Shown: positions 3,167 through 31,904, counted from the first letter of the stretch. The stretch: DNA of 64,000 bases from an uncultured Gammaproteobacteria bacterium (GCA_964573235.1 CAZNIV010000001.1:3709-67708), one strand, 5' to 3'. A program made the numbers and translations. Notes: generated by a model from the sequence alone, not told the origin.

Positions 3167-5077
3167 TTATTTTTTGCCATTAAACCAGTAGTTCATAATA
3201 TCTTTAGCGATTGGCACTGCGATCACATCACCACCACCACCCTCTTCTACTAATACCGTGATGGAAAAAGTTGGATTTTCAAATGGCGCATAAGCATTAA
3301 ACCAAGCATGATAAGCCTTGCTACTATTCCACTGAGCCGTACCGGTTTTACCCGCAGAAGTAACTGGTAAACTAGCTAGGGCTCGACCAGAACCGGCTAA
3401 TACCGTTTGACGCATCGCATCTTGCACAAATTTAATATTTTTTTTATCCACCATGCCTTCACGAATAACTTCTATTGGCATTTCTTTTTTGGTGCCATCA
3501 GCATTAATAATGGTCTTTACCAAATGCGGACGAATTAATTTTCCGCCATTAGCAACTGTTGAGTTATAAGCATTAACTTGTAGCGGTGTTACCAATAAAC
3601 CACCCTGACCAATTGATAAATGATAAGTATCGCCAATATACCAAGGTTCACCAGAAGTTTTCTTTTTCCATTCTTCATCTGGCACCAAACCCTTACTCTC
3701 ACCCGGTAAATCAATACCCAAACGCTCACCTAAGCCAAATAATCTAAGATACTTATCTATTCTTTCTAGTCCCAAACCTTTAAAATCGCCATAGCCACCG
3801 CCAATATAATAAAAATAGGTATTTACCGACATGGCAATAGCGCGATACAAATTAGTCACTCCATGACCTCCAGCAAGCCAGTCAGGAAAGGTCCAAGAGC
3901 CCACATGAATGCCTCCTGTGCTCAAAAAACTAGTTTGTGGAGTTACTACCCCCTCTTGCAGTGCCGCGGCTGCCATGACCATTTTAACCGTTGAGCCAGA
4001 GGGATACTCACCAGAAACCGAGCGACTAAATAATGGCTTCTTTTCATCGTTTAATAAGGCTTTATAATCTGCTAAACTAATTCCAGTTGTAAATAAATTA
4101 TTATCATAAGATGGGTAATCCACCAGTGCTAATATTTCGCCATTTTGAGGATTAGAAATCACTATTGCCGCCGTTTTTTTTCCTTGCAATCTTTTTTCTA
4201 AAGTCCGATAAGCAAACTCCTGCAAATCTACATCAATACTTAACTGAATATCTGATCCGGGCACAAATGGCACCTGCGACACAATTTTTCTTTCACGCCC
4301 CAAAGCATCTACTTCTACCATTTTTTTACCATGTTGGCCTTTCAAATCTTGTTCGTAATATCTCTCTAGACCCGTCTTACCAATACCATCTGTTAATAAA
4401 TATTGCCCCGGATTTTTTTCATATTCAGCCGTATTCACCTTGCCCACATAACCCATAATATGCGAAGTTTCTTTACTATATAAATAATTACGCCAAGAAT
4501 CCACCTCCAAATCTACTCCCGGCAAATCGGCACTCATAATTTTTAACGCCATCGCCTGTTCGTAAGGAATACCCGTTTTAATCGTAATCGGTTCAAAATA
4601 ATATTTATCAGCACCTTTGATTTGTTCCTCCACATCTGAAACCTGTAATCCAAAAACCGTGGCTATCTTATCTAAAACCGCCTGCCTTTGCTGTTGCTCT
4701 TTTGGTAATCCAGCCTGAGTAATGAATAAAGAAAAACCGGAAACATTTTGCACTAACGGCTTACCATTACGATCAAGAATAATGCCGCGATTCGCCTTAA
4801 CATACTCGGTACGCAAGCGATTACTTTCTGCCTGACTAAAATAAGTATCGCCCTTAATAATTTGCAAATAAAAAGTTTTCCCCAATAATAACACTAAGGC
4901 TAACATCAACAAGGCAATAAAAATTATTGCTCTAGTCTTAGTTAACGATAAGCTCAAATAAGATGAGGAGTGAAATGAAGCGCCATCAGAATTAAAAGAG
5001 CTTTCCACCCACGCCAAATTACTTTTAGCTTTTAAATCTATATCATCAGAAATAAAAAATGGTCCTTCTCTTCTCAT
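3167..5077 (-). CDS. mrdA: Penicillin-binding protein 2 (peptidoglycan D,D-transpeptidase, elongasome)
   Basis: N-terminal TM segment; SxxK (STVK), SxN (SVN) and KTG (KTGTA) motifs; located downstream of mreBCD. Confidence 0.85.
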   Translation of the reverse strand: MRREGPFFISDDIDLKAKSNLAWVESSFNSDGASFHSSSYLSLSLTKTRAIIFIALLMLALVLLLGKTFYLQIIKGDTYFSQAESNRLRTEYVKANRGIILDRNGKPLVQNVSGFSLFITQAGLPKEQQQRQAVLDKIATVFGLQVSDVEEQIKGADKYYFEPITIKTGIPYEQAMALKIMSADLPGVDLEVDSWRNYLYSKETSHIMGYVGKVNTAEYEKNPGQYLLTDGIGKTGLERYYEQDLKGQHGKKMVEVDALGRERKIVSQVPFVPGSDIQLSIDVDLQEFAYRTLEKRLQGKKTAAIVISNPQNGEILALVDYPSYDNNLFTTGISLADYKALLNDEKKPLFSRSVSGEYPSGSTVKMVMAAAALQEGVVTPQTSFLSTGGIHVGSWTFPDWLAGGHGVTNLYRAIAMSVNTYFYYIGGGYGDFKGLGLERIDKYLRLFGLGERLGIDLPGESKGLVPDEEWKKKTSGEPWYIGDTYHLSIGQGGLLVTPLQVNAYNSTVANGGKLIRPHLVKTIINADGTKKEMPIEVIREGMVDKKNIKFVQDAMRQTVLAGSGRALASLPVTSAGKTGTAQWNSSKAYHAWFNAYAPFENPTFSITVLVEEGGGGDVIAVPIAKDIMNYWFNGKK

Positions 5078-6429: not shown

Positions 6430-7467
6430 TTATTGGGCGGAAGGGATAGAAATATCATTCAAAAGCGCCTCATCTTCTAAAATAACGCCCATACCGCGCA
6501 CCACGCAAGTTTGAGGGTCATCCGCAATGTGCACTGGTATTTGAATGGCGTTAGCAATAAAACGATCCACGCCTTTTAATAACGAGGTGCCACCGGTTAA
6601 AATAACGCCTTTCTGATAAATATCCGCCACCAATTCCGGAGGGGTGGTTTCTAGAGTGGATTTAATCGCATCTACGATCTGACGCACTGATTTATTAATA
6701 GATTGTTGAATCTGAACAGAATTAACATGAACTTCTCTTGGCAAACCACTCAAAATATCACGACCACGCATTTCTATTTCCATCACTTCTTTCAAATCAA
6801 CAGCTGAACCAATTTTCTTTTTAATGTCTTCCGCTACCATTTCACCCAAAACCAAACTAAATTCTTCTCGCGCAAAACGAACAATATCATGATTGAGAGT
6901 TTGACCAGCTACCTTAGAAACTTTCCAATTAACAATGCCATTTAAAGAAATTACCGCAACTTCGGTTAAGCCACCGCCTAAATTAACTACCATATTACCG
7001 CTTGGATCTTGAATAGGAATACGAGCACCAATCGCTGCAGCCATGATATTTTCTACTAAGTAAACTTGCTTAGCGCCAGCCGATAACACCACATCTTCTA
7101 CGGCTTTTTTTTCTACCTCGGTTACATCTAATGGAATACCCACAATAACCCTAGGCTTACCACCAAAAGAAAATTTTTCTGACTGCACTTTTTCAAAAAA
7201 ATATTTAAGCATTTTTTCGGCCACTTCAAAATTAGAAATGACGCCATGCACCAACGGTGAATCAGCTTCAATATGAGGCGGGGTTTTACCCAACATGCGC
7301 CTAGCATCATCACCAACGGCTAAAATTTGGTCGGTGCGATGATTAATCGCTACCACTGATGATTCACTAACTACAATGCCACGATCCCGTTTAAAAATCG
7401 TGGTTTTAGTCGTACCCAAATCCACGCCCAAGTCATGATTAAATTTTCCAAAAAACTTTTTAAACAT
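6430..7467 (-). CDS. mreB: Actin-like rod shape protein MreB (paralog 1)
   Basis: GVDLGTTKT phosphate-1 motif and NLGGGLTEVAVISLNG; full-length homology to MreB. Confidence 0.85.
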   Translation of the reverse strand: MFKKFFGKFNHDLGVDLGTTKTTIFKRDRGIVVSESSVVAINHRTDQILAVGDDARRMLGKTPPHIEADSPLVHGVISNFEVAEKMLKYFFEKVQSEKFSFGGKPRVIVGIPLDVTEVEKKAVEDVVLSAGAKQVYLVENIMAAAIGARIPIQDPSGNMVVNLGGGLTEVAVISLNGIVNWKVSKVAGQTLNHDIVRFAREEFSLVLGEMVAEDIKKKIGSAVDLKEVMEIEMRGRDILSGLPREVHVNSVQIQQSINKSVRQIVDAIKSTLETTPPELVADIYQKGVILTGGTSLLKGVDRFIANAIQIPVHIADDPQTCVVRGMGVILEDEALLNDISIPSAQ

Positions 7468-26004: not shown

Positions 26005-26035
26005 TTTATCATAAATTTAACCAAAAACGAAAGGG

Positions 26036-26293
26036 TTACTTATCCCCCTCAATCTCTCTTAAAATCCAACTATGCCCTGTAATCTTATTAATTTTTAACA
26101 CTATCCCCTCAGCTAAAGTACCTTTAGATAACATATCCACATTAAATTTAACATTTTCTGGTAACACTTCTTCGCCATGTTCTACGATGGAACCCAAATC
26201 TACTGTCGCCGATTTAACGTTATTTAAACTATTTTTTTCAGCATGCTCTAAAATAGTTTTAAAAATAATATCTGCTAAGTGAAAATCGTGCAT
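26036..26293 (-). CDS. hypA: HypA-like nickel metallochaperone N-domain protein lacking the zinc-finger domain
   Basis: Probable start MHDFHL (internal Met of the track ORF 26036..26329). It aligns to the HypA N-terminal domain (MHE...KHGAKRVT..V.LKIGAFS...LAFCF..V..GSVAEG..L). No CxxC...CxxC follows, and the next gene starts 31 nt downstream. Confidence 0.5.
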   Translation of the reverse strand: MHDFHLADIIFKTILEHAEKNSLNNVKSATVDLGSIVEHGEEVLPENVKFNVDMLSKGTLAEGIVLKINKITGHSWILREIEGDK

Positions 26294-26304
26294 AATAATT
26301 TTAA

Positions 26305-27591
26305 TTAATGAGTAGCACAAGAAATGCAAGGATCATAAGCACGAATCAAAGCGCGGATTTTTAGTGATCGTTTTTTGGCATCCATCTTAATCACATCTGG
26401 TAAATAAGTTTTAATATCTTCTTCTAGATTACGCAGAAAAGAACAAGTTGGTGTAATGATATCACAATTAGTGATAAAACCATTAGCGTCAATTTCATAA
26501 TGATGATACAAGGTGCCTCGAGGAGCTTCTACTGCCGCCGCCCCAATACATAATTTACCAAGTGGATTAGCCCCGGCCACGATACCCAGTTCTGCTAACC
26601 GACTAGCTTCGGGCTTAATTTCTGCCACCAAGTGTGTTAATAATTTACCCACCTCTTCTACGGCATGCAAAACCTCAATTGCTTGCGCGGTAATATTACA
26701 GAAACTATTGTATTGTGGTAATTCCCAATTTAAACTTTTTAAAACTCCTGCCGCCAAAGGATTTAGTTTTTGATGATTCAAATTTATTCTAGCTAACGCG
26801 CCAACCATAAACGGTTCGCCCTTTAGTGTAGCTGATTTAGCATGACGATACGGTTCTTCAATTTCTTTAATATTCTTAGCAAAGTTAACCGCTGGCACTT
26901 TTTTAAAACCACCCAAATTCAAATCACCATCATAAATAGCATAATTATGATCGGCCGATAACGCCACATGTTTAGTGGTACGAGAAAATTTAGGGTATTT
27001 AATTTTTAACACTAAGTGAATTAAGGATAAGGAGTCTTTCAATACCGCTTGATATTGACCCAAAAGCACTTGCAATTCCTCTTTATTTGGTGTCACCTTA
27101 AATCCACCCACTTCGGAATTAATCGGATGAATAGCGCGACCACCAATCACTTCAATAATCTTTAGCGCCCAATCACGAACGCGCATCGCACTTTGAGTTT
27201 CTTTAGGATATTGTTTAATTAATTGCAAATCATTTTCAATATCAAAAAAATCAGCTAACGATAAAAAAAATAAATGAAGCGCATGTGAGTGAATAATTTG
27301 CGCCATCGACATAGCCTGTCTGAGCTTAACCGTTTGTTCACTAACTTTAATATCTAAAGCATTTTCAATTGCCTTAATTGAGGTTAAATTATGCACCACC
27401 GGACAAATACCACAAATACGCGCCGTGACAATTGGCGCCTCTGTAAAATGACGACCAACCAAAATCCCCTCGATCAACCTCGTGCCCTCAGCCGTTAACA
27501 ACTTAGCCGATTTAACATCGCCATTCATAATCTCAGCCACAAAATCAGTGTGACCTTCCATTTTACCAATATGATTGATTTGGATTTTCAT
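26305..27591 (-). CDS. hydA: [NiFe]-hydrogenase large (alpha) subunit, group 3 (3b-like)
   Basis: L1 motif RICGICPVVH near the N-terminus; L2 motif DPCISCATH is the extreme C-terminus, so there is no cleavable extension; 428 aa. Confidence 0.85.
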   Translation of the reverse strand: MKIQINHIGKMEGHTDFVAEIMNGDVKSAKLLTAEGTRLIEGILVGRHFTEAPIVTARICGICPVVHNLTSIKAIENALDIKVSEQTVKLRQAMSMAQIIHSHALHLFFLSLADFFDIENDLQLIKQYPKETQSAMRVRDWALKIIEVIGGRAIHPINSEVGGFKVTPNKEELQVLLGQYQAVLKDSLSLIHLVLKIKYPKFSRTTKHVALSADHNYAIYDGDLNLGGFKKVPAVNFAKNIKEIEEPYRHAKSATLKGEPFMVGALARINLNHQKLNPLAAGVLKSLNWELPQYNSFCNITAQAIEVLHAVEEVGKLLTHLVAEIKPEASRLAELGIVAGANPLGKLCIGAAAVEAPRGTLYHHYEIDANGFITNCDIITPTCSFLRNLEEDIKTYLPDVIKMDAKKRSLKIRALIRAYDPCISCATH

Positions 27592-27594
27592 ATC

Positions 27595-27849
27595 TTAAAT
27601 AAAAATTTTAATAACTAAAAGTCCAACCACTATTCCCAACACATTAAACAACATATCCAAACTACTTTCTTTTAAATCATTAGTACGCATAAACTGATCA
27701 CTAATTTCTTTAGTCAAACCAACCGCCAAAGAAAATAAAACCGCCGCCAAATAACTACCAGAAATCGCATAAACCGTACTTGACATCATTGAAGAAATTA
27801 AAAAATGCGCTACCTTGTCATAATTATTTGTCAGCCTTAGGTAAAACAT
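27595..27849 (-). CDS. Small (84 aa) two-TM membrane protein encoded between the hydrogenase small and large subunit genes
   Basis: It fills the 232-nt gap between the delta and alpha genes. It has two hydrophobic helices. The start may be an internal Met, which would reduce the 26-nt overlap with the delta gene. Confidence 0.4.
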   Translation of the reverse strand: MFYLRLTNNYDKVAHFLISSMMSSTVYAISGSYLAAVLFSLAVGLTKEISDQFMRTNDLKESSLDMLFNVLGIVVGLLVIKIFI

Positions 27850-28654
27850 TTATTTTCTTTTTAATCACTTTTTTAGTTGCCTTCTGTTCTTTAGACCATT
27901 CTTGCATGATTGTATCTTTAGCGCCAAATACTTCCATTACGCGATCAACTTGTTTTTTTGTAAATTTAGACAATAAATAAGCCATCAAATTACTCACTTG
28001 CGCGCCCTCAAATAACCCGCGACAACCCCAACAAGCCTGTTTACTCTTCAAGCACACTGCTTCACAGCCACCCAAGGTTATTGGCCCTAAGCAAATTTGA
28101 CCTTTTTGCAATAAACACTCATAACCTAATTTTTGACATTCGTAACATACCGGATTTTGCGAAATTCTTGGTTTACGCCCAGCCAATAACTGATAACCAA
28201 TTTCCATAAACTCTTTACCGGTAATTGGGCAGCCAGGAATAGTCAAATCTACTTTCACAAAATTATCCACTTCTTTGATATCTGGATTAGGCACCTTAAT
28301 ATCATGATAAACTTGTTTAATCGTCTTTTTCTTATCGCCATAGTTTTTCATCTCCCAAACACCGCCTAGCGCCGCGCAATTGCCCAGCACTACCAAAAAA
28401 TCAGATTGCTGACGTAATAATTTTAATAGTTTAATATTTTCTTCTGTCACCGGATTACCTTCCACAAAACAAATATCAAACCGACGCGCCGTCATTGGCT
28501 CATCTTCAATTAATCTAAATTCTTCCACCTCAAAATTTTTCAACCAACTTAAAAATCTTGGACCTTCATCCAACATAGCAAATTGGCACCCTTCACAAGA
28601 GGTTAAGCCCACAATAGCAATTTTTAATTTTGTAGTTTTATTTTTTGCCTTCAT
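27824..28654 (-). CDS. hydD: [NiFe]-hydrogenase small (delta) subunit, group 3
   Basis: SCEGCQ proximal-cluster motif, GNCAALGG, IPGCPI, and a C-terminal Cys-rich region for the medial/distal clusters. Confidence 0.8.
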   Translation of the reverse strand: MKAKNKTTKLKIAIVGLTSCEGCQFAMLDEGPRFLSWLKNFEVEEFRLIEDEPMTARRFDICFVEGNPVTEENIKLLKLLRQQSDFLVVLGNCAALGGVWEMKNYGDKKKTIKQVYHDIKVPNPDIKEVDNFVKVDLTIPGCPITGKEFMEIGYQLLAGRKPRISQNPVCYECQKLGYECLLQKGQICLGPITLGGCEAVCLKSKQACWGCRGLFEGAQVSNLMAYLLSKFTKKQVDRVMEVFGAKDTIMQEWSKEQKATKKVIKKKINVLPKADK

Positions 28655-28692: not shown

Positions 28693-29952
28693 CTAAATTT
28701 TCACCTTCAACTCTTCTTCAAGCATCTCATAGCTTAAATCCCCTTTAAATAGTGCCCATTTTTCCATTTTTTTCTCCTGATCATAGAATTTATTCTCATA
28801 AATTTCATAATCGGCGCGATACTTTTCTGGCGTTAAATTAAGCATGATCGCATTAGCGCCAGCCATAAACGCCTTATGCCGAAATTGCTCACCATAAAGC
28901 GTTTCCATGGCAGTAGTAACGGGTATTCTGGCTTTAGGTAAAACTAAGCGAATAGTGGCAATAATTTTTAACATCATTTCTTCTGGTAAAATTATCTCAT
29001 CAACCAACGGGGTATTTTTCGATGGCACTAATGGCCCAAATGACGGCATGAAAGCATTAAACCTTTTTAGCGTCAAAATATCTACCGCTAAATCAGTTAC
29101 TGATTGCTTAGGTAAGCCAGCGATAAAACCAGTGGCAATGGTATAACCTAATTTTAAACAACCATCAATTAATGCACGGCGATCGGCACCATCTTCGCCT
29201 TGATGCAAATCAGTATACAATCTATCATTCATTTCTTCGTATCTAATTAAAACGCCATTAGCACCAGCTTTTTTTAATTGCTGATAAACTTCCAAAGAGC
29301 GACCACCAATACTCAAATATAAAAACGCGCGAAAACGCTTTTTAATTTCTGTCACTAAACTTATTAAATCAGCGTCAGAATAAGTATAATCTTCCCCGGA
29401 TTGCAATACTAAAATTTTATAACCTTTATCCTCTACCGCTTCTCGCACCGCTTCAATAATTTCTTCGCTCGTCATACGATAACGCTTTACCGCCTGATTA
29501 CCACATCTAATGCCACAATACTGACAATTACTAGCGCAATAATTAGAAAACTCAATCAAACCATGCACGCAAATATGATCTTTAATACTAGTTTTTCTGG
29601 TAATATTGGCCTCAGAATACAACTCATTTAAATCAGCTTCGGATTTTAAGGTTAATAAATATTCAATATCTGCCTGTTGCAATTTGTCTGACTTAGCTTT
29701 AGCTAAGATATTTTTTAATTCTTGATTTTGACTGGGCTCGGCCAATGGATAAGCTTTTAGCAACGCAAAAATTTCTTCTGCCTCTGAAGCGGAAATTTTT
29801 TTCAGTAAAAAATCATTGGTAAATAAAACCCAGTCACCGATCTGTAAGTCTTCTGGCGTTAACATTTTTACTTCTTTTTCTCGGCCACTCACTTCTAATT
29901 TGGCCGAAACGCCAGAAACCGACAAGACCTTTGCCGGTAAAGTCAAACACAT
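28693..29952 (-). CDS. Fusion protein: N-terminal HypC/HupF-like domain (MCLTLP...) + HydE/HmdB/BioB-like radical SAM domain
   Basis: Residues 1-70 align with HypC (MCLTLPAKV...GDWVLFTNDF versus E. coli MCIGVPGQI...GQWVLVHVGF). Residues ~120-419 carry CASNCQYCG (CxxxCxxC), GLIEFSNYC, KRYRMT and LQSGED, strongly resembling HydE as remembered. One uninterrupted ORF. Confidence 0.8.
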   Translation of the reverse strand: MCLTLPAKVLSVSGVSAKLEVSGREKEVKMLTPEDLQIGDWVLFTNDFLLKKISASEAEEIFALLKAYPLAEPSQNQELKNILAKAKSDKLQQADIEYLLTLKSEADLNELYSEANITRKTSIKDHICVHGLIEFSNYCASNCQYCGIRCGNQAVKRYRMTSEEIIEAVREAVEDKGYKILVLQSGEDYTYSDADLISLVTEIKKRFRAFLYLSIGGRSLEVYQQLKKAGANGVLIRYEEMNDRLYTDLHQGEDGADRRALIDGCLKLGYTIATGFIAGLPKQSVTDLAVDILTLKRFNAFMPSFGPLVPSKNTPLVDEIILPEEMMLKIIATIRLVLPKARIPVTTAMETLYGEQFRHKAFMAGANAIMLNLTPEKYRADYEIYENKFYDQEKKMEKWALFKGDLSYEMLEEELKVKI

Positions 29953-29961
29953 AAATTTAAA

Positions 29962-30108
29962 TTACATTCTGTTTTTACGAAAAATGGTAGCCAAACCCAA
30001 AACGATCAAAGCAATTGGCCAAATCAAATCCCAATTGATCGCTGGCACTACGCCCAAATACTTGAGCAAGAAAACCAAACCCACAACTACCAATGCTACT
30101 CCCAACAT
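29962..30108 (-). CDS. Candidate small (48 aa) hydrophobic membrane peptide between hydG and the hypC-rSAM fusion (not in the supplied ORF track)
   Basis: Manual translation gives MLGVALVVVGLVFLLKYLGVVPAINWDLIWPIALIVLGLATIFRKNRM. The 168-nt gap in this otherwise tightly packed operon has no other explanation. Confidence 0.3.
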   Translation of the reverse strand: MLGVALVVVGLVFLLKYLGVVPAINWDLIWPIALIVLGLATIFRKNRM

Positions 30109-30120
30109 ATATTTAAAAAA

Positions 30121-30942
30121 TTAATTAAATTTAATATAATCTTTAATTTCACTCCAGGTGAATACCGGGCCATCTTTACATACATAATACGGGCCAATAG
30201 CGCAATGTTGGCAAACACCAACCCCGCAATACATTTTCTTTTCTAATGACACATAAATATTTTCATCTTTTATGCCTTTGGCCTGCAATTGTTCTACCAC
30301 AAACTTATACATCACTGGCGGACCAACAATAATGGCAATAGAATTAGAAGTAATAACGCGTTTAGCCAATAAATTAGTAATTAAGCCTTTATCCCCTTTC
30401 CAATCTTTTTCTGGCTTATCTAAAGTTAAATTAAACTCGCTATGCTTTTTCCAGTAATCATGCTCAGATTTAAAAAGTATTGAGTGCTGATTTAAGCAGC
30501 CATAAAAAATTTGCATCACCGTATTATCTAATCGGCCGGCCATATAATCAACAATAATTGGCCTAAGTGGAATAAAACCACAACCGCCACCAATTACAAT
30601 CAACGGTAAATCTTTAGCCTTTTCCACGTCAAAACCGTTGCCAAACGGGCCACGAATATCTACCTCATCACCTACTATTAAATTACTGAATTTATGCGTC
30701 AATAAACCCACGTCACGAATAGCTAACTCAAAATAATTTTTTGCCTCAAACGGCGACGAACAAATACTAATCGGACACTCGCCCCAACCCGGCAAACCCA
30801 CTTGCATAAATTGGCCATGAATAAAAGCAAAGTTTTTTTGCTGCTTAGTATCAATAAATTTTAAACGCCACAAAATTGTATCGGGCGACAAGCACTCAAC
30901 GGCAACAATTTTAGCTTTTTGCGGTTGATAAATATTGATCAT
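30121..30942 (-). CDS. hydG: Sulfhydrogenase/3b-hydrogenase gamma-like subunit (FAD/NAD(P)-binding oxidoreductase with C-terminal 2Fe-2S; PyrK/AsrB-like)
   Basis: FNR-like fold with IVIGGGCGFIPLRPI and a C-terminal CGVGVCQHC...C cluster motif. Confidence 0.75.
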   Translation of the reverse strand: MINIYQPQKAKIVAVECLSPDTILWRLKFIDTKQQKNFAFIHGQFMQVGLPGWGECPISICSSPFEAKNYFELAIRDVGLLTHKFSNLIVGDEVDIRGPFGNGFDVEKAKDLPLIVIGGGCGFIPLRPIIVDYMAGRLDNTVMQIFYGCLNQHSILFKSEHDYWKKHSEFNLTLDKPEKDWKGDKGLITNLLAKRVITSNSIAIIVGPPVMYKFVVEQLQAKGIKDENIYVSLEKKMYCGVGVCQHCAIGPYYVCKDGPVFTWSEIKDYIKFN

Positions 30943-31904
30943 AGATTTTTAAGCACCTCATTGATTTTAATTCCCACTGGGCAAACATTACTGCAACGAT
31001 TACAACTAACACAACCCGGCAAGCCGTATTCTTTAGGAATGCGCACAAATTTATGGGTATACCAAAAATAAATCTTTTGTTTAGCGGTATCTAGCGATTT
31101 ATGCCCGCCAGCCACCAAAGAAAAATCATTATAAAAGCAATTACCCCACTTGCGAACGCGACCGGTATTATTCACATCATTTTTATCTTCTAAATCAAAG
31201 CAAAAACAAGTCGGGCATACAATAGAACACTTACCACAAGCGATGCAAGTTTTGCCCAATTCTTCCCAAATTGGCTGATCAAAAGACTGATCAACTTTCT
31301 TTTTTAACAATAACATGCGCTTATCTTGGCCTTCTTCGGCAATCGGCCCAGCAAATTCTACGTGCTGATATTTTTTGGCACCACGCTTTTCTAAAAATAA
31401 CTGACCTTTTTCTGATCCGGAATATAAATCATAACCATCATTAACTCTGGCCATCAAAAAGATATCAAACACTAAGTGCTCTAAAAAGTTTTCTTCCCAA
31501 TTATGGGTAAAGACTTTATATTTTTTAAATTCCTCGGGCGCGCCCGTACCTAATCCCACTATTAAAGTACGACGACGACGTTCTTGATAATATTTATCCT
31601 TAGAAAATACCTGCTCCCACAAAGCCAACGCCTTTAAATCCAAAACATTAATGCCCACCAAAGAAAATTTTGGCCAAACACGAGTTTCTTCTTTTAAATT
31701 ACCGCCACTAATGCCAAATAAGCGTTCCTCAGCCGGAATTAGCCATTGCTTAAAAGAATTAACTGGCATTTCGGCCGACCAATCAATATTTTTTAAATCT
31801 GTTACTGGCGCTACCTTAAGTACACCATCAATTCTTTGAGGTGCTATAATCTGATATTCTTTAGAAATGGCTAAAATTAAATTTTGTAATTCGGTTTTAT
31901 TCAT
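30939..31904 (-). CDS. hydB: Sulfhydrogenase/3b-hydrogenase beta-like subunit (4Fe-4S ferredoxin domain protein; AsrA-like)
   Basis: CIACGKCSIVCP and CVSCNRCSNVCP motifs; overlaps hydG by 4 nt. Confidence 0.7.
   Translation of the reverse strand: MNKTELQNLILAISKEYQIIAPQRIDGVLKVAPVTDLKNIDWSAEMPVNSFKQWLIPAEERLFGISGGNLKEETRVWPKFSLVGINVLDLKALALWEQVFSKDKYYQERRRRTLIVGLGTGAPEEFKKYKVFTHNWEENFLEHLVFDIFLMARVNDGYDLYSGSEKGQLFLEKRGAKKYQHVEFAGPIAEEGQDKRMLLLKKKVDQSFDQPIWEELGKTCIACGKCSIVCPTCFCFDLEDKNDVNNTGRVRKWGNCFYNDFSLVAGGHKSLDTAKQKIYFWYTHKFVRIPKEYGLPGCVSCNRCSNVCPVGIKINEVLKNL

Follow-up and report, generated by a model that had tools for sequence, protein, structure and literature searches.

Group 3b [NiFe]-hydrogenases are treated as soluble four-subunit enzymes, and metabolic reconstructions of CPR/Patescibacteria depend on that view; published modelling of CPR group 3b complexes likewise considered four subunits only. 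The prototypes of the group, SHI and SHII of P. furiosus, are soluble heterotetramers encoded by contiguous genes. In the stretch of DNA analysed here (64,000 nucleotides, referred to below as the window), a short open reading frame for a hydrophobic protein, orf84 (27595–27849, minus strand), lies between the small- and large-subunit genes of such an enzyme, and the initial annotation proposed that its product could tether the complex to the membrane. The locus thus raises the questions of whether orf84 is a real gene, what kind of protein it encodes and why it resides within a hydrogenase operon.

All of the genes concerned are on the minus strand. The operon opens with the genes for the beta (Fe-S) subunit (30939–31904) and the gamma subunit, an FAD/NAD-binding diaphorase (30121–30942), both assigned by family-model matches. 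A 48-aa mini-ORF encoding a two-TM protein with a LiaI/LiaF-like TM domain follows (29962–30108), and then a gene in which HypC (the N-terminal 65 aa) is fused to a HydE/PylB-like radical SAM enzyme (28693–29952; PF01455 E 4.3e-15, together with PF04055 and BATS). The small subunit, delta (27824–28654; Pfam Oxidored_q6 E 3.5e-21, NCBIfam sulfhydrogenase HydD/ShyD E ~1e-43), is followed by orf84 and by the large subunit, alpha (26305–27591; Pfam NiFeSe_Hases E 2.9e-43, NCBIfam ShyA/HydA E 1e-65 to 1e-69). The last gene encodes a short HypA-like nickel metallochaperone (26036–26293; 85 aa from an internal Met; PF01155 E 1.1e-7), directly after which a consensus scan places a terminator-like hairpin and T-run (26028–26051, minus strand). 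The same scan, which in this region yields as many sites as chance would give, returned no terminator-like site in the delta-alpha interval. Beta, gamma, delta and alpha all match subunit models of the P. furiosus sulfhydrogenase, and the four families appear in the order found in SHI/SHII (beta-gamma-delta-alpha), but the window and its relatives interleave small membrane, maturation and unrelated genes among the subunit genes.

Two of the maturation genes deserve separate mention. The HypC-radical SAM fusion scores 251.3 bits (E 1.5e-74) with the HydE model TIGR03956, short of its cut-off of 254.6, and a HydE-type maturase is unusual within a [NiFe]-hydrogenase context; the fusion is found again in ~15 related loci, with stand-alone HypC (~65 aa) in others. 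The HypA-like protein, which is also annotated with 85 aa in the NCBI record of one contig from the same population (L031), begins with MHD and seemingly lacks the C-terminal zinc-cysteine portion; its homologues in related loci are equally short.

The reading frame of orf84 runs for 84 codons from ATG to TAA in the direction of the hydrogenase genes. The first 26 nt coincide with the 3' end of delta; the stop codon (27595–27597) lies 3 nt upstream of the alpha ATG at 27591. Length alone is weak evidence for a gene of this size: the window holds 72 ORFs of at least 84 aa, and ~11 are expected per shuffled window by chance. A word-indexed protein search with the single orf84 sequence returned only the identical protein. 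Both observations would suit a chance ORF or a wrongly called extension of an adjacent gene, but we count that reading as refuted, with a negligible chance of being correct, by several lines of evidence. A full HMMER scan of 1.84 billion representatives with orf84 gave 25 hits at E ≤ 1e-3, mostly of 74–98 aa but in two cases longer, at 113 and 1211 aa; the protein itself apart, the best hit has E 1.2e-10 and 41% identity. The small family so defined (hereafter T, with orf84 as the window copy) consists of proteins of 77–97 aa, shares 31–43% identity with the window protein and carries the motif DKxxHF ... GLxKExxDQ ... KNxxKESxxDxLxN/DxLGI; H15, K47, E48, D51 and D65 are invariant across the family alignment, and D11, K12, G44 and G72 nearly so. 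Among its members pN is 0.15–0.35 and pS 0.5–0.8, in comparisons that consist of saturated pairs only. A confident AF2 model, described below, also argues against a chance ORF. As for an extension of alpha, which the initial annotation had entertained as an explanation of the gap, orf84 is in a different frame and alpha is already complete, its residue 1 aligning with residue 1 of its homologues, so this candidate was discarded. By homology, orf84 is a genuine protein-coding gene, and to that extent the initial annotation, which had recognised a small ORF between the two subunit genes, was right.

The selective history of orf84 can be read only from its more divergent relatives. An identical protein occurs on seven short contigs (L031–L037), but these derive from one population (≥ 99.7% identical) and are uninformative on selection, and the other near-identical locus pairs have zero differences inside T. 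As judged from the family alignment, pN far below pS and the conserved polar pocket described below show purifying selection on orf84. The GC3 of orf84, 0.294, matches that of the neighbouring genes, so recent horizontal transfer, which was considered, is not indicated. The absence of a Shine-Dalgarno motif at orf84 carries no weight, since such a motif is missing from every gene of the operon.

The neighbourhood just upstream shows some irregularity among assemblies. Window position 27983, inside delta, is the exact break point of three independent assemblies (NCBI, JGI and ENA); in another contig a 4-nt indel terminates delta before the orf84 start, and a third contig departs from the window before 28442 (site ~28442–28458). 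Together these hint at strain-level heterogeneity just upstream of orf84.

An AF2 model of the orf84 product, computed with the family alignment as input, has a mean pLDDT of 90.3 and consists of helices spanning residues 2–30, 33–53 and 59–83. The model and the hydropathy profiles agree on three hydrophobic helices, and the two TM segments originally called must be revised accordingly; helix 1 is Ser-rich and weakly hydrophobic in the window copy and strongly hydrophobic in homologues. The conserved residues form a polar pocket comprising D11, K12 and H15; K47, E48 and D51; N57, E61, D65 and N69; and G72. The sole sizeable soluble part of the protein, residues 47–64, has a predicted cytoplasmic location. 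Signal peptides and lipoboxes are absent from the T family, in which the chain ahead of the DKxxH motif has no hydrophobic segment; the N-terminus reads MKHKDKIKHF in family members and MFYLRLTNNYDK in the window copy. Summed over 12 members, Lys and Arg residues number 76 in the N-terminal tail and loop 2 and 16 in loop 1 and the C-terminal tail. Under the positive-inside rule, from which alone the topology is drawn, this bias predicts an N-in orientation with the polar pocket facing the cytoplasm, opposite to that of YfiM, the protein family to which T proves to be related.

This relationship emerged from profile-profile comparison. When the T alignment (A2) was compared by hhalign with an 18-member YfiM alignment that included E. 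coli YfiM, the match had a probability of 97.4% and E 1.5e-11 over 78 columns, with D11-K12-H15, K47-E48-D51, D65 and N69 of orf84 falling on D27-K28-H31, K71-E72-D75, D87 and D91 of YfiM; a comparison of the single sequences gave the same register. Nearly all YfiM invariants are reproduced in the T profile alignment, and the two share an ~80-residue three-helix core with the pattern D-K-x-x-H-F-x-x-S ... G-x-x-K-E-x-x-D ... S-x-x-D-x-x-x-(D/N)-x-x-G-x-x-x-G. Scores against curated models fall under their cut-offs: orf84 matches NCBIfam YfiM (NF008028) with E 3e-5 and 24.2 bits (cut-off 117), Pfam DUF2279 (PF10043) with E 0.017 and 16.3 bits (cut-off 28.6) and Pfam VanZ (PF04892) with E 2.3e-3 and 19 bits (cut-off 30.1). 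Among the family members, 10 of 24 match DUF2279 (best 1.5e-4) and 8 of 24 match VanZ (best 3.6e-7). A sequence-profile search of the PDB with T gave no match, and a BFVD search gave weak matches (E ≥ 0.02) to small phage 'lipoproteins'. Cytochrome b subunits and the HupE/UreJ, NiCoT and CbiMN families showed no similarity in Pfam/NCBIfam scans of orf84 at E ≤ 1 or of the 24 members.

YfiM and VanZ have both been assigned to the lipocone superfamily, for which action on lipid head groups is predicted (Burroughs et al., PMC12419801). The comparison with VanZ was made via the Pfam profile only, T matching positions 56–125 of 126, its C-terminal part. The DKxxH and DxxxN/D motifs of T lie in helices equivalent to those that carry RKxxH and DxxxD in VanZ/Llp1 (the VanZ-2 family), and a metal-dependent pocket for a lipid head group is predicted for both families. 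T, with three helices, nonetheless has no counterpart of the first of the four helices in the lipocone core and, unlike VanZ, is unassociated with peptidoglycan, flippase or glycopeptide-resistance genes.

YfiM is a Ca2+-dependent pyrophosphatase with three TM domains that acts on lipid-linked oligosaccharides; its cofactor can be Ca2+ or Mn2+, it is inactive with Co2+, and each of the substitutions K28A, H31A, E72A and D91A abolishes its activity (bioRxiv 10.64898/2026.09.16.752124). Other bacterial YfiM homologues with conserved active sites were inactive on the eukaryotic test substrate (bioRxiv 10.64898/2026.09.16.752124). T retains three of the four essential residues (K28, H31 and E72) as well as the conserved D87 equivalent. 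The residue equivalent to D91 is Asn in the window protein (N69), as it is in 8 of 12 members, the other four having Asp, and on this basis the T pocket may be catalytically altered or inactive. T differs from YfiM further in having no signal peptide or lipobox, in a loop between helices 1 and 2 that is shorter by 8 residues, and in a Lys-rich N-terminal tail and loop 2, which predict the inverted, cytoplasm-facing pocket. The hosts also differ, single-membrane Patescibacteria as opposed to Gram-negative rods, as does the context, YfiM being found beside pssA or OMP genes (PMC12419801) and T in a hydrogenase operon. On alignment evidence, orf84 is homologous to YfiM/DUF2279. Because it misses the curated thresholds, has no lipoprotein signal and lacks Asp at the fourth catalytic position, it is filed as a variant and not as a YfiM orthologue, and T is best seen, on these sequence comparisons, as a new subfamily within the YfiM/VanZ lipocone group, minimal and devoid of a signal peptide.

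The distribution of T bears on its connection with the hydrogenase. T loci were found via the T family itself, by look-ups and by a metagenome scan with the tighter alignment A2, and all 12 of the distinct core members with readable context lie beside delta and/or alpha of a Patescibacteria group 3b-type hydrogenase; no core member was found outside the delta-alpha slot. Both flanks are visible, in the order delta-T-alpha, in eight loci other than the window (L038/L049, L047, L048/L061, L051/L052, L053, L054, L056 and L057/L058; the L048 protein is identical to that in L061/L062). Loci at contig ends show alpha only (L050) or delta only (L055), and in L039–41 the order is delta, an acidic protein 'H' considered below, T, and then an IS200 transposase. 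The T-bearing loci form two hydrogenase clades, one comprising the window and L047 and the other a sister clade with alpha 74–92% identical to that of L038. T recurs, then, where delta meets alpha in some of the Patescibacteria operons of the Buchananbacteria type, and the claim that a dedicated small membrane protein is tied to the hydrogenase locus is upheld in this form. Start/stop overlaps of the ATGA type occur in L039, L051 and L056, and these, with the overlap of orf84 with delta, its abutment on alpha and the lack of a terminator-like site in the slot, point to operon membership. The window and L047 copies are 31–47% identical to other members. The correlation of T identity with delta and alpha identity was considered as evidence of co-evolution and set aside, since it mostly reflects the split into two clades.

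A different picture is obtained when loci are chosen by the hydrogenase. We retrieved, via alpha, 30 related loci from species-representative genomes, most of them Buchananbacteria with alpha 62–69% identical to that of the window, and T is present in none of the 30 by either tblastn or profile HMM. The delta-alpha gap in these loci ranges from −4 to 1668 nt; it is 4–14 nt in L001, L015, L017, L020, L027 and L028, and in L026 the two genes overlap by 4 nt. The initial annotation had reckoned that the lack of the ORF from homologous loci with directly adjacent delta and alpha genes would speak against its proposal, and these seven are loci of that kind. Near-identical enzyme cores work without T, which is thus not a core or fifth structural subunit of the group 3b hydrogenase. 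Related alpha genes number roughly 880. Among three sister-clade loci picked by alpha alone, one contains T, another has a 320-nt gap without a forward-strand gene and the third has an unrelated DUF2569 membrane protein (L065 6389–6994).

The slot itself is occupied by a varied set of genes. The commonest occupant, found in 14 of the 30 representative loci, is H, an acidic helical protein of 84–109 aa with no Pfam match, which occurs together with T in L047, L051/52 and L039–41, in either order. Other slot genes encode a MazE-like protein, a 23S rRNA IVS protein (L014 7565–7948), a PALP (PLP) enzyme (L011 6921–7952), a nitroreductase (L023 6370–7095) and an EgtD-like methyltransferase with an HD protein (L030 6513–8004); the MazE-like proteins, of 55–57 aa, occur in L005, L008 and L014, and GIY-YIG and IS200 Y1_Tnp genes lie close to the slot in L039. 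With occupants so varied and T so sporadic, the slot is a permissive insertion site of which T is a recurrent optional occupant; T is an optional accessory gene. More generally, the intergenic slots of these operons, the delta-alpha slot above all, carry changing unrelated genes, some of selfish-element type, and behave as insertion hot spots.

These observations invite the reading that T is a pure passenger, brought by a single insertion, perhaps of phage origin, into a permissive slot, persisting by descent and operon inertia and having a function unrelated to hydrogen metabolism. The hot-spot behaviour of the slot, with many unrelated genes and with IS200 and GIY-YIG nearby, fits such an origin, as does the repeated loss of T. 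The neighbourhood hydrogenase-pgk-SIMPL-eno-gpmI is common to both clades, and since the whole locus is syntenic the shared position of T can be simple inheritance. Distant relatives of T (30–32% identical, with the same motifs) are encoded on contigs of phage-like character, close to genes for endolysins or ThyX, and give matches to a PHROG family called 'lipoprotein'. Against this, strong purifying selection on the pocket residues shows that the protein is used, and no core member has been found off the slot despite divergence to 31–47% identity. We regard a pure passenger as unlikely, though deserving of serious consideration, and note that it overlaps with the explanation that we prefer, the sole difference being whether co-expression with the hydrogenase matters.

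The phage-borne relatives are located at 5001–5258 in L042/L043 and in L045 and at 879–1127 in L059, either two to five genes from GH108/M15 endolysins or beside ThyX. Overexpression of YfiM brings about osmotic lysis (bioRxiv 10.64898/2026.09.16.752124), and by analogy the phage-contig relatives could be lysis or envelope-remodelling factors.

The reading that we prefer, to which we assign a probability of roughly one half, is that orf84 encodes a YfiM-like accessory three-helix membrane protein that is expressed with the hydrogenase and would hydrolyse, or merely bind, a lipid pyrophosphate head group. The gene would probably be co-transcribed and translationally coupled with the group 3b hydrogenase genes, and its product, an integral membrane protein pared down to three helices, would belong to the YfiM/DUF2279-VanZ branch of the lipocone superfamily. 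We infer that a divalent cation is bound in the K12/H15/E48/D65/N69 pocket at the membrane interface, and that this pocket probably hydrolyses or merely binds a pyrophosphate-linked polyprenyl or phospholipid head group, as YfiM/VanZ do with lipid-linked oligosaccharides. It would most likely act from the cytoplasmic side; we know of no substrate for a cytoplasm-facing enzyme of the YfiM-like kind. Other points that count against this reading are the missed curated thresholds, the Asn at the D91 position, the inactivity of other bacterial YfiM homologues on the eukaryotic test substrate and the exclusive association with delta/alpha in 12 of 12 cases, for which a function unrelated to the hydrogenase is a poor explanation unless it is purely inherited. 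The likeliest reason for the location of orf84 would be an old insertion into a permissive slot, kept because the protein itself is useful.

The original interpretation survives in part. A membrane protein linked to the locus is what the 12 junction-borne members represent, whereas an obligatory tether or subunit is not supported, given the 30 loci without T, its presence in one of three sister-clade loci and the enzyme-like pocket. In its fullest form, the tether proposal would have T hold the otherwise soluble group 3b enzyme at the cytoplasmic membrane, perhaps jointly with the 48-aa LiaI/LiaF-like protein, contact being made through the cytoplasmic loop and the pocket. The restriction of the T family to the delta/alpha junction, an overlap with delta and abutment on alpha that are compatible with translational coupling, and the predicted cytoplasmic placement of residues 47–64 would all be in keeping with docking, and in L065 the slot is used by another membrane protein, DUF2569. 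The operon also conserves the 48-aa ORF as a second gene for a small membrane protein, and in Bacillus subtilis LiaI anchors LiaH to the membrane. On the other hand, T is missing from the 30 related loci, seven of them with adjacent delta and alpha; the invariant K/H/E/D pocket is homologous to an enzyme active site and needless for anchoring; and T evolves much faster than its partners (between the window and L047, T is 40% and delta 70% identical). The YfiM homology and the mostly kept catalytic pocket argue for an enzyme or ligand-binding site over a passive anchor, and we now consider the tether improbable. At similarly long odds, an inverted, signal-peptide-less YfiM-like T might have been recruited as a hydrogenase-specific membrane partner that either docks the enzyme or links H2/NAD(P)H turnover to the metabolism of polyprenyl pyrophosphate, the envelope carrier lipid, in ultra-small Patescibacteria, possibly assisted by the 48-aa LiaI-like protein.

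That second hydrophobic mini-ORF, which the initial annotation suggested reading together with orf84, is real: its product has two TM segments, passes Pfam cut-offs (PF18917, LiaI-LiaF-like_TM1, E 8.6e-9; PF22570, E 9.2e-9) and, by tblastn, is found at the same place, with gamma on one side and HypC on the other, in L052 and in at least 13 related loci of the Buchananbacteria type. Within the clade of the window it is more widely conserved than orf84. It shares the two-TM hairpin of the LiaI/LiaF N-terminal TM domain, but differs from those proteins in being 48 aa only and in residing in hydrogenase operons, with no LiaH/PspA partner or LiaFSR genes nearby.

A further possibility is that the pocket handles metal, the H/E/D/N side chains binding Ni2+ or another divalent cation at the inner membrane face and handing it to HypA or alpha; T would then join the theme of nickel supply that runs through these operons. 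In YfiM the homologous pocket binds a divalent cation (bioRxiv 10.64898/2026.09.16.752124), the gene for the Ni-containing subunit directly follows T, and transporters of the CbiM/PDGLE and CNNM/CorC types are interleaved in sister-clade operons. YfiM, however, uses Ca2+ or Mn2+ catalytically and is inactive with Co2+ (bioRxiv 10.64898/2026.09.16.752124), T is unlike the HupE/UreJ, NiCoT and CbiMN families in the Pfam/NCBIfam scans and is present both with and without CbiM in the operon, and a monomer with three helices is too small to form a channel. A role in metal delivery is accordingly very unlikely, and the preferred reading remains that of a YfiM-like accessory protein with a lipid pyrophosphate head group as its putative ligand.

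In the literature searched, no report links VanZ or YfiM-like genes with hydrogenase operons. The association of T with the hydrogenase is clean and, in that literature, unreported; its distribution is sporadic and its function putative. The operons of one large CPR lineage are mosaics, repeatedly with small membrane proteins and with a lineage-specific, fast-evolving YfiM-like gene. If T is functionally coupled to the enzyme, this would for the first time connect H2 metabolism with the recently defined pyrophosphatase/lipocone enzymes whose substrates are lipid-linked oligosaccharides, and T would be the first predicted cytoplasm-facing member of the YfiM/VanZ pyrophosphatase/lipocone family. 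If T is a passenger only, the YfiM/VanZ family is still extended into Patescibacteria, and a permissive insertion slot is documented in a conserved operon, which matters for the automated annotation of hydrogenase gene clusters.

Several minor observations concern the related operons. Those of the sister clade (L038, L039, L061, L063 and L065) interleave CbiM (with or without PDGLE), an EamA transporter, DUF6390, a flavin reductase and a CNNM/CorC-type protein, and homologues of these are absent from the 64-kb window. H is likewise absent from the window and could be an unrecognised hydrogenase accessory factor; its coordinates include L003 7734–7988, L008 7212–7466, L009 7661–7990, L047 1592–1900, L051 1589–1858 and L039 4735–5004. 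Finally, a GC-rich ORF of ~54–66 aa on the reverse strand, whose hydrophobic product has two TM segments, is found between the slot gene and alpha (L061 6717–6917, minus strand; L058 1470–1670, minus strand; L063 ~6700–6900) and explains the seemingly non-coding gaps of ~330–350 nt in several sister-clade loci.
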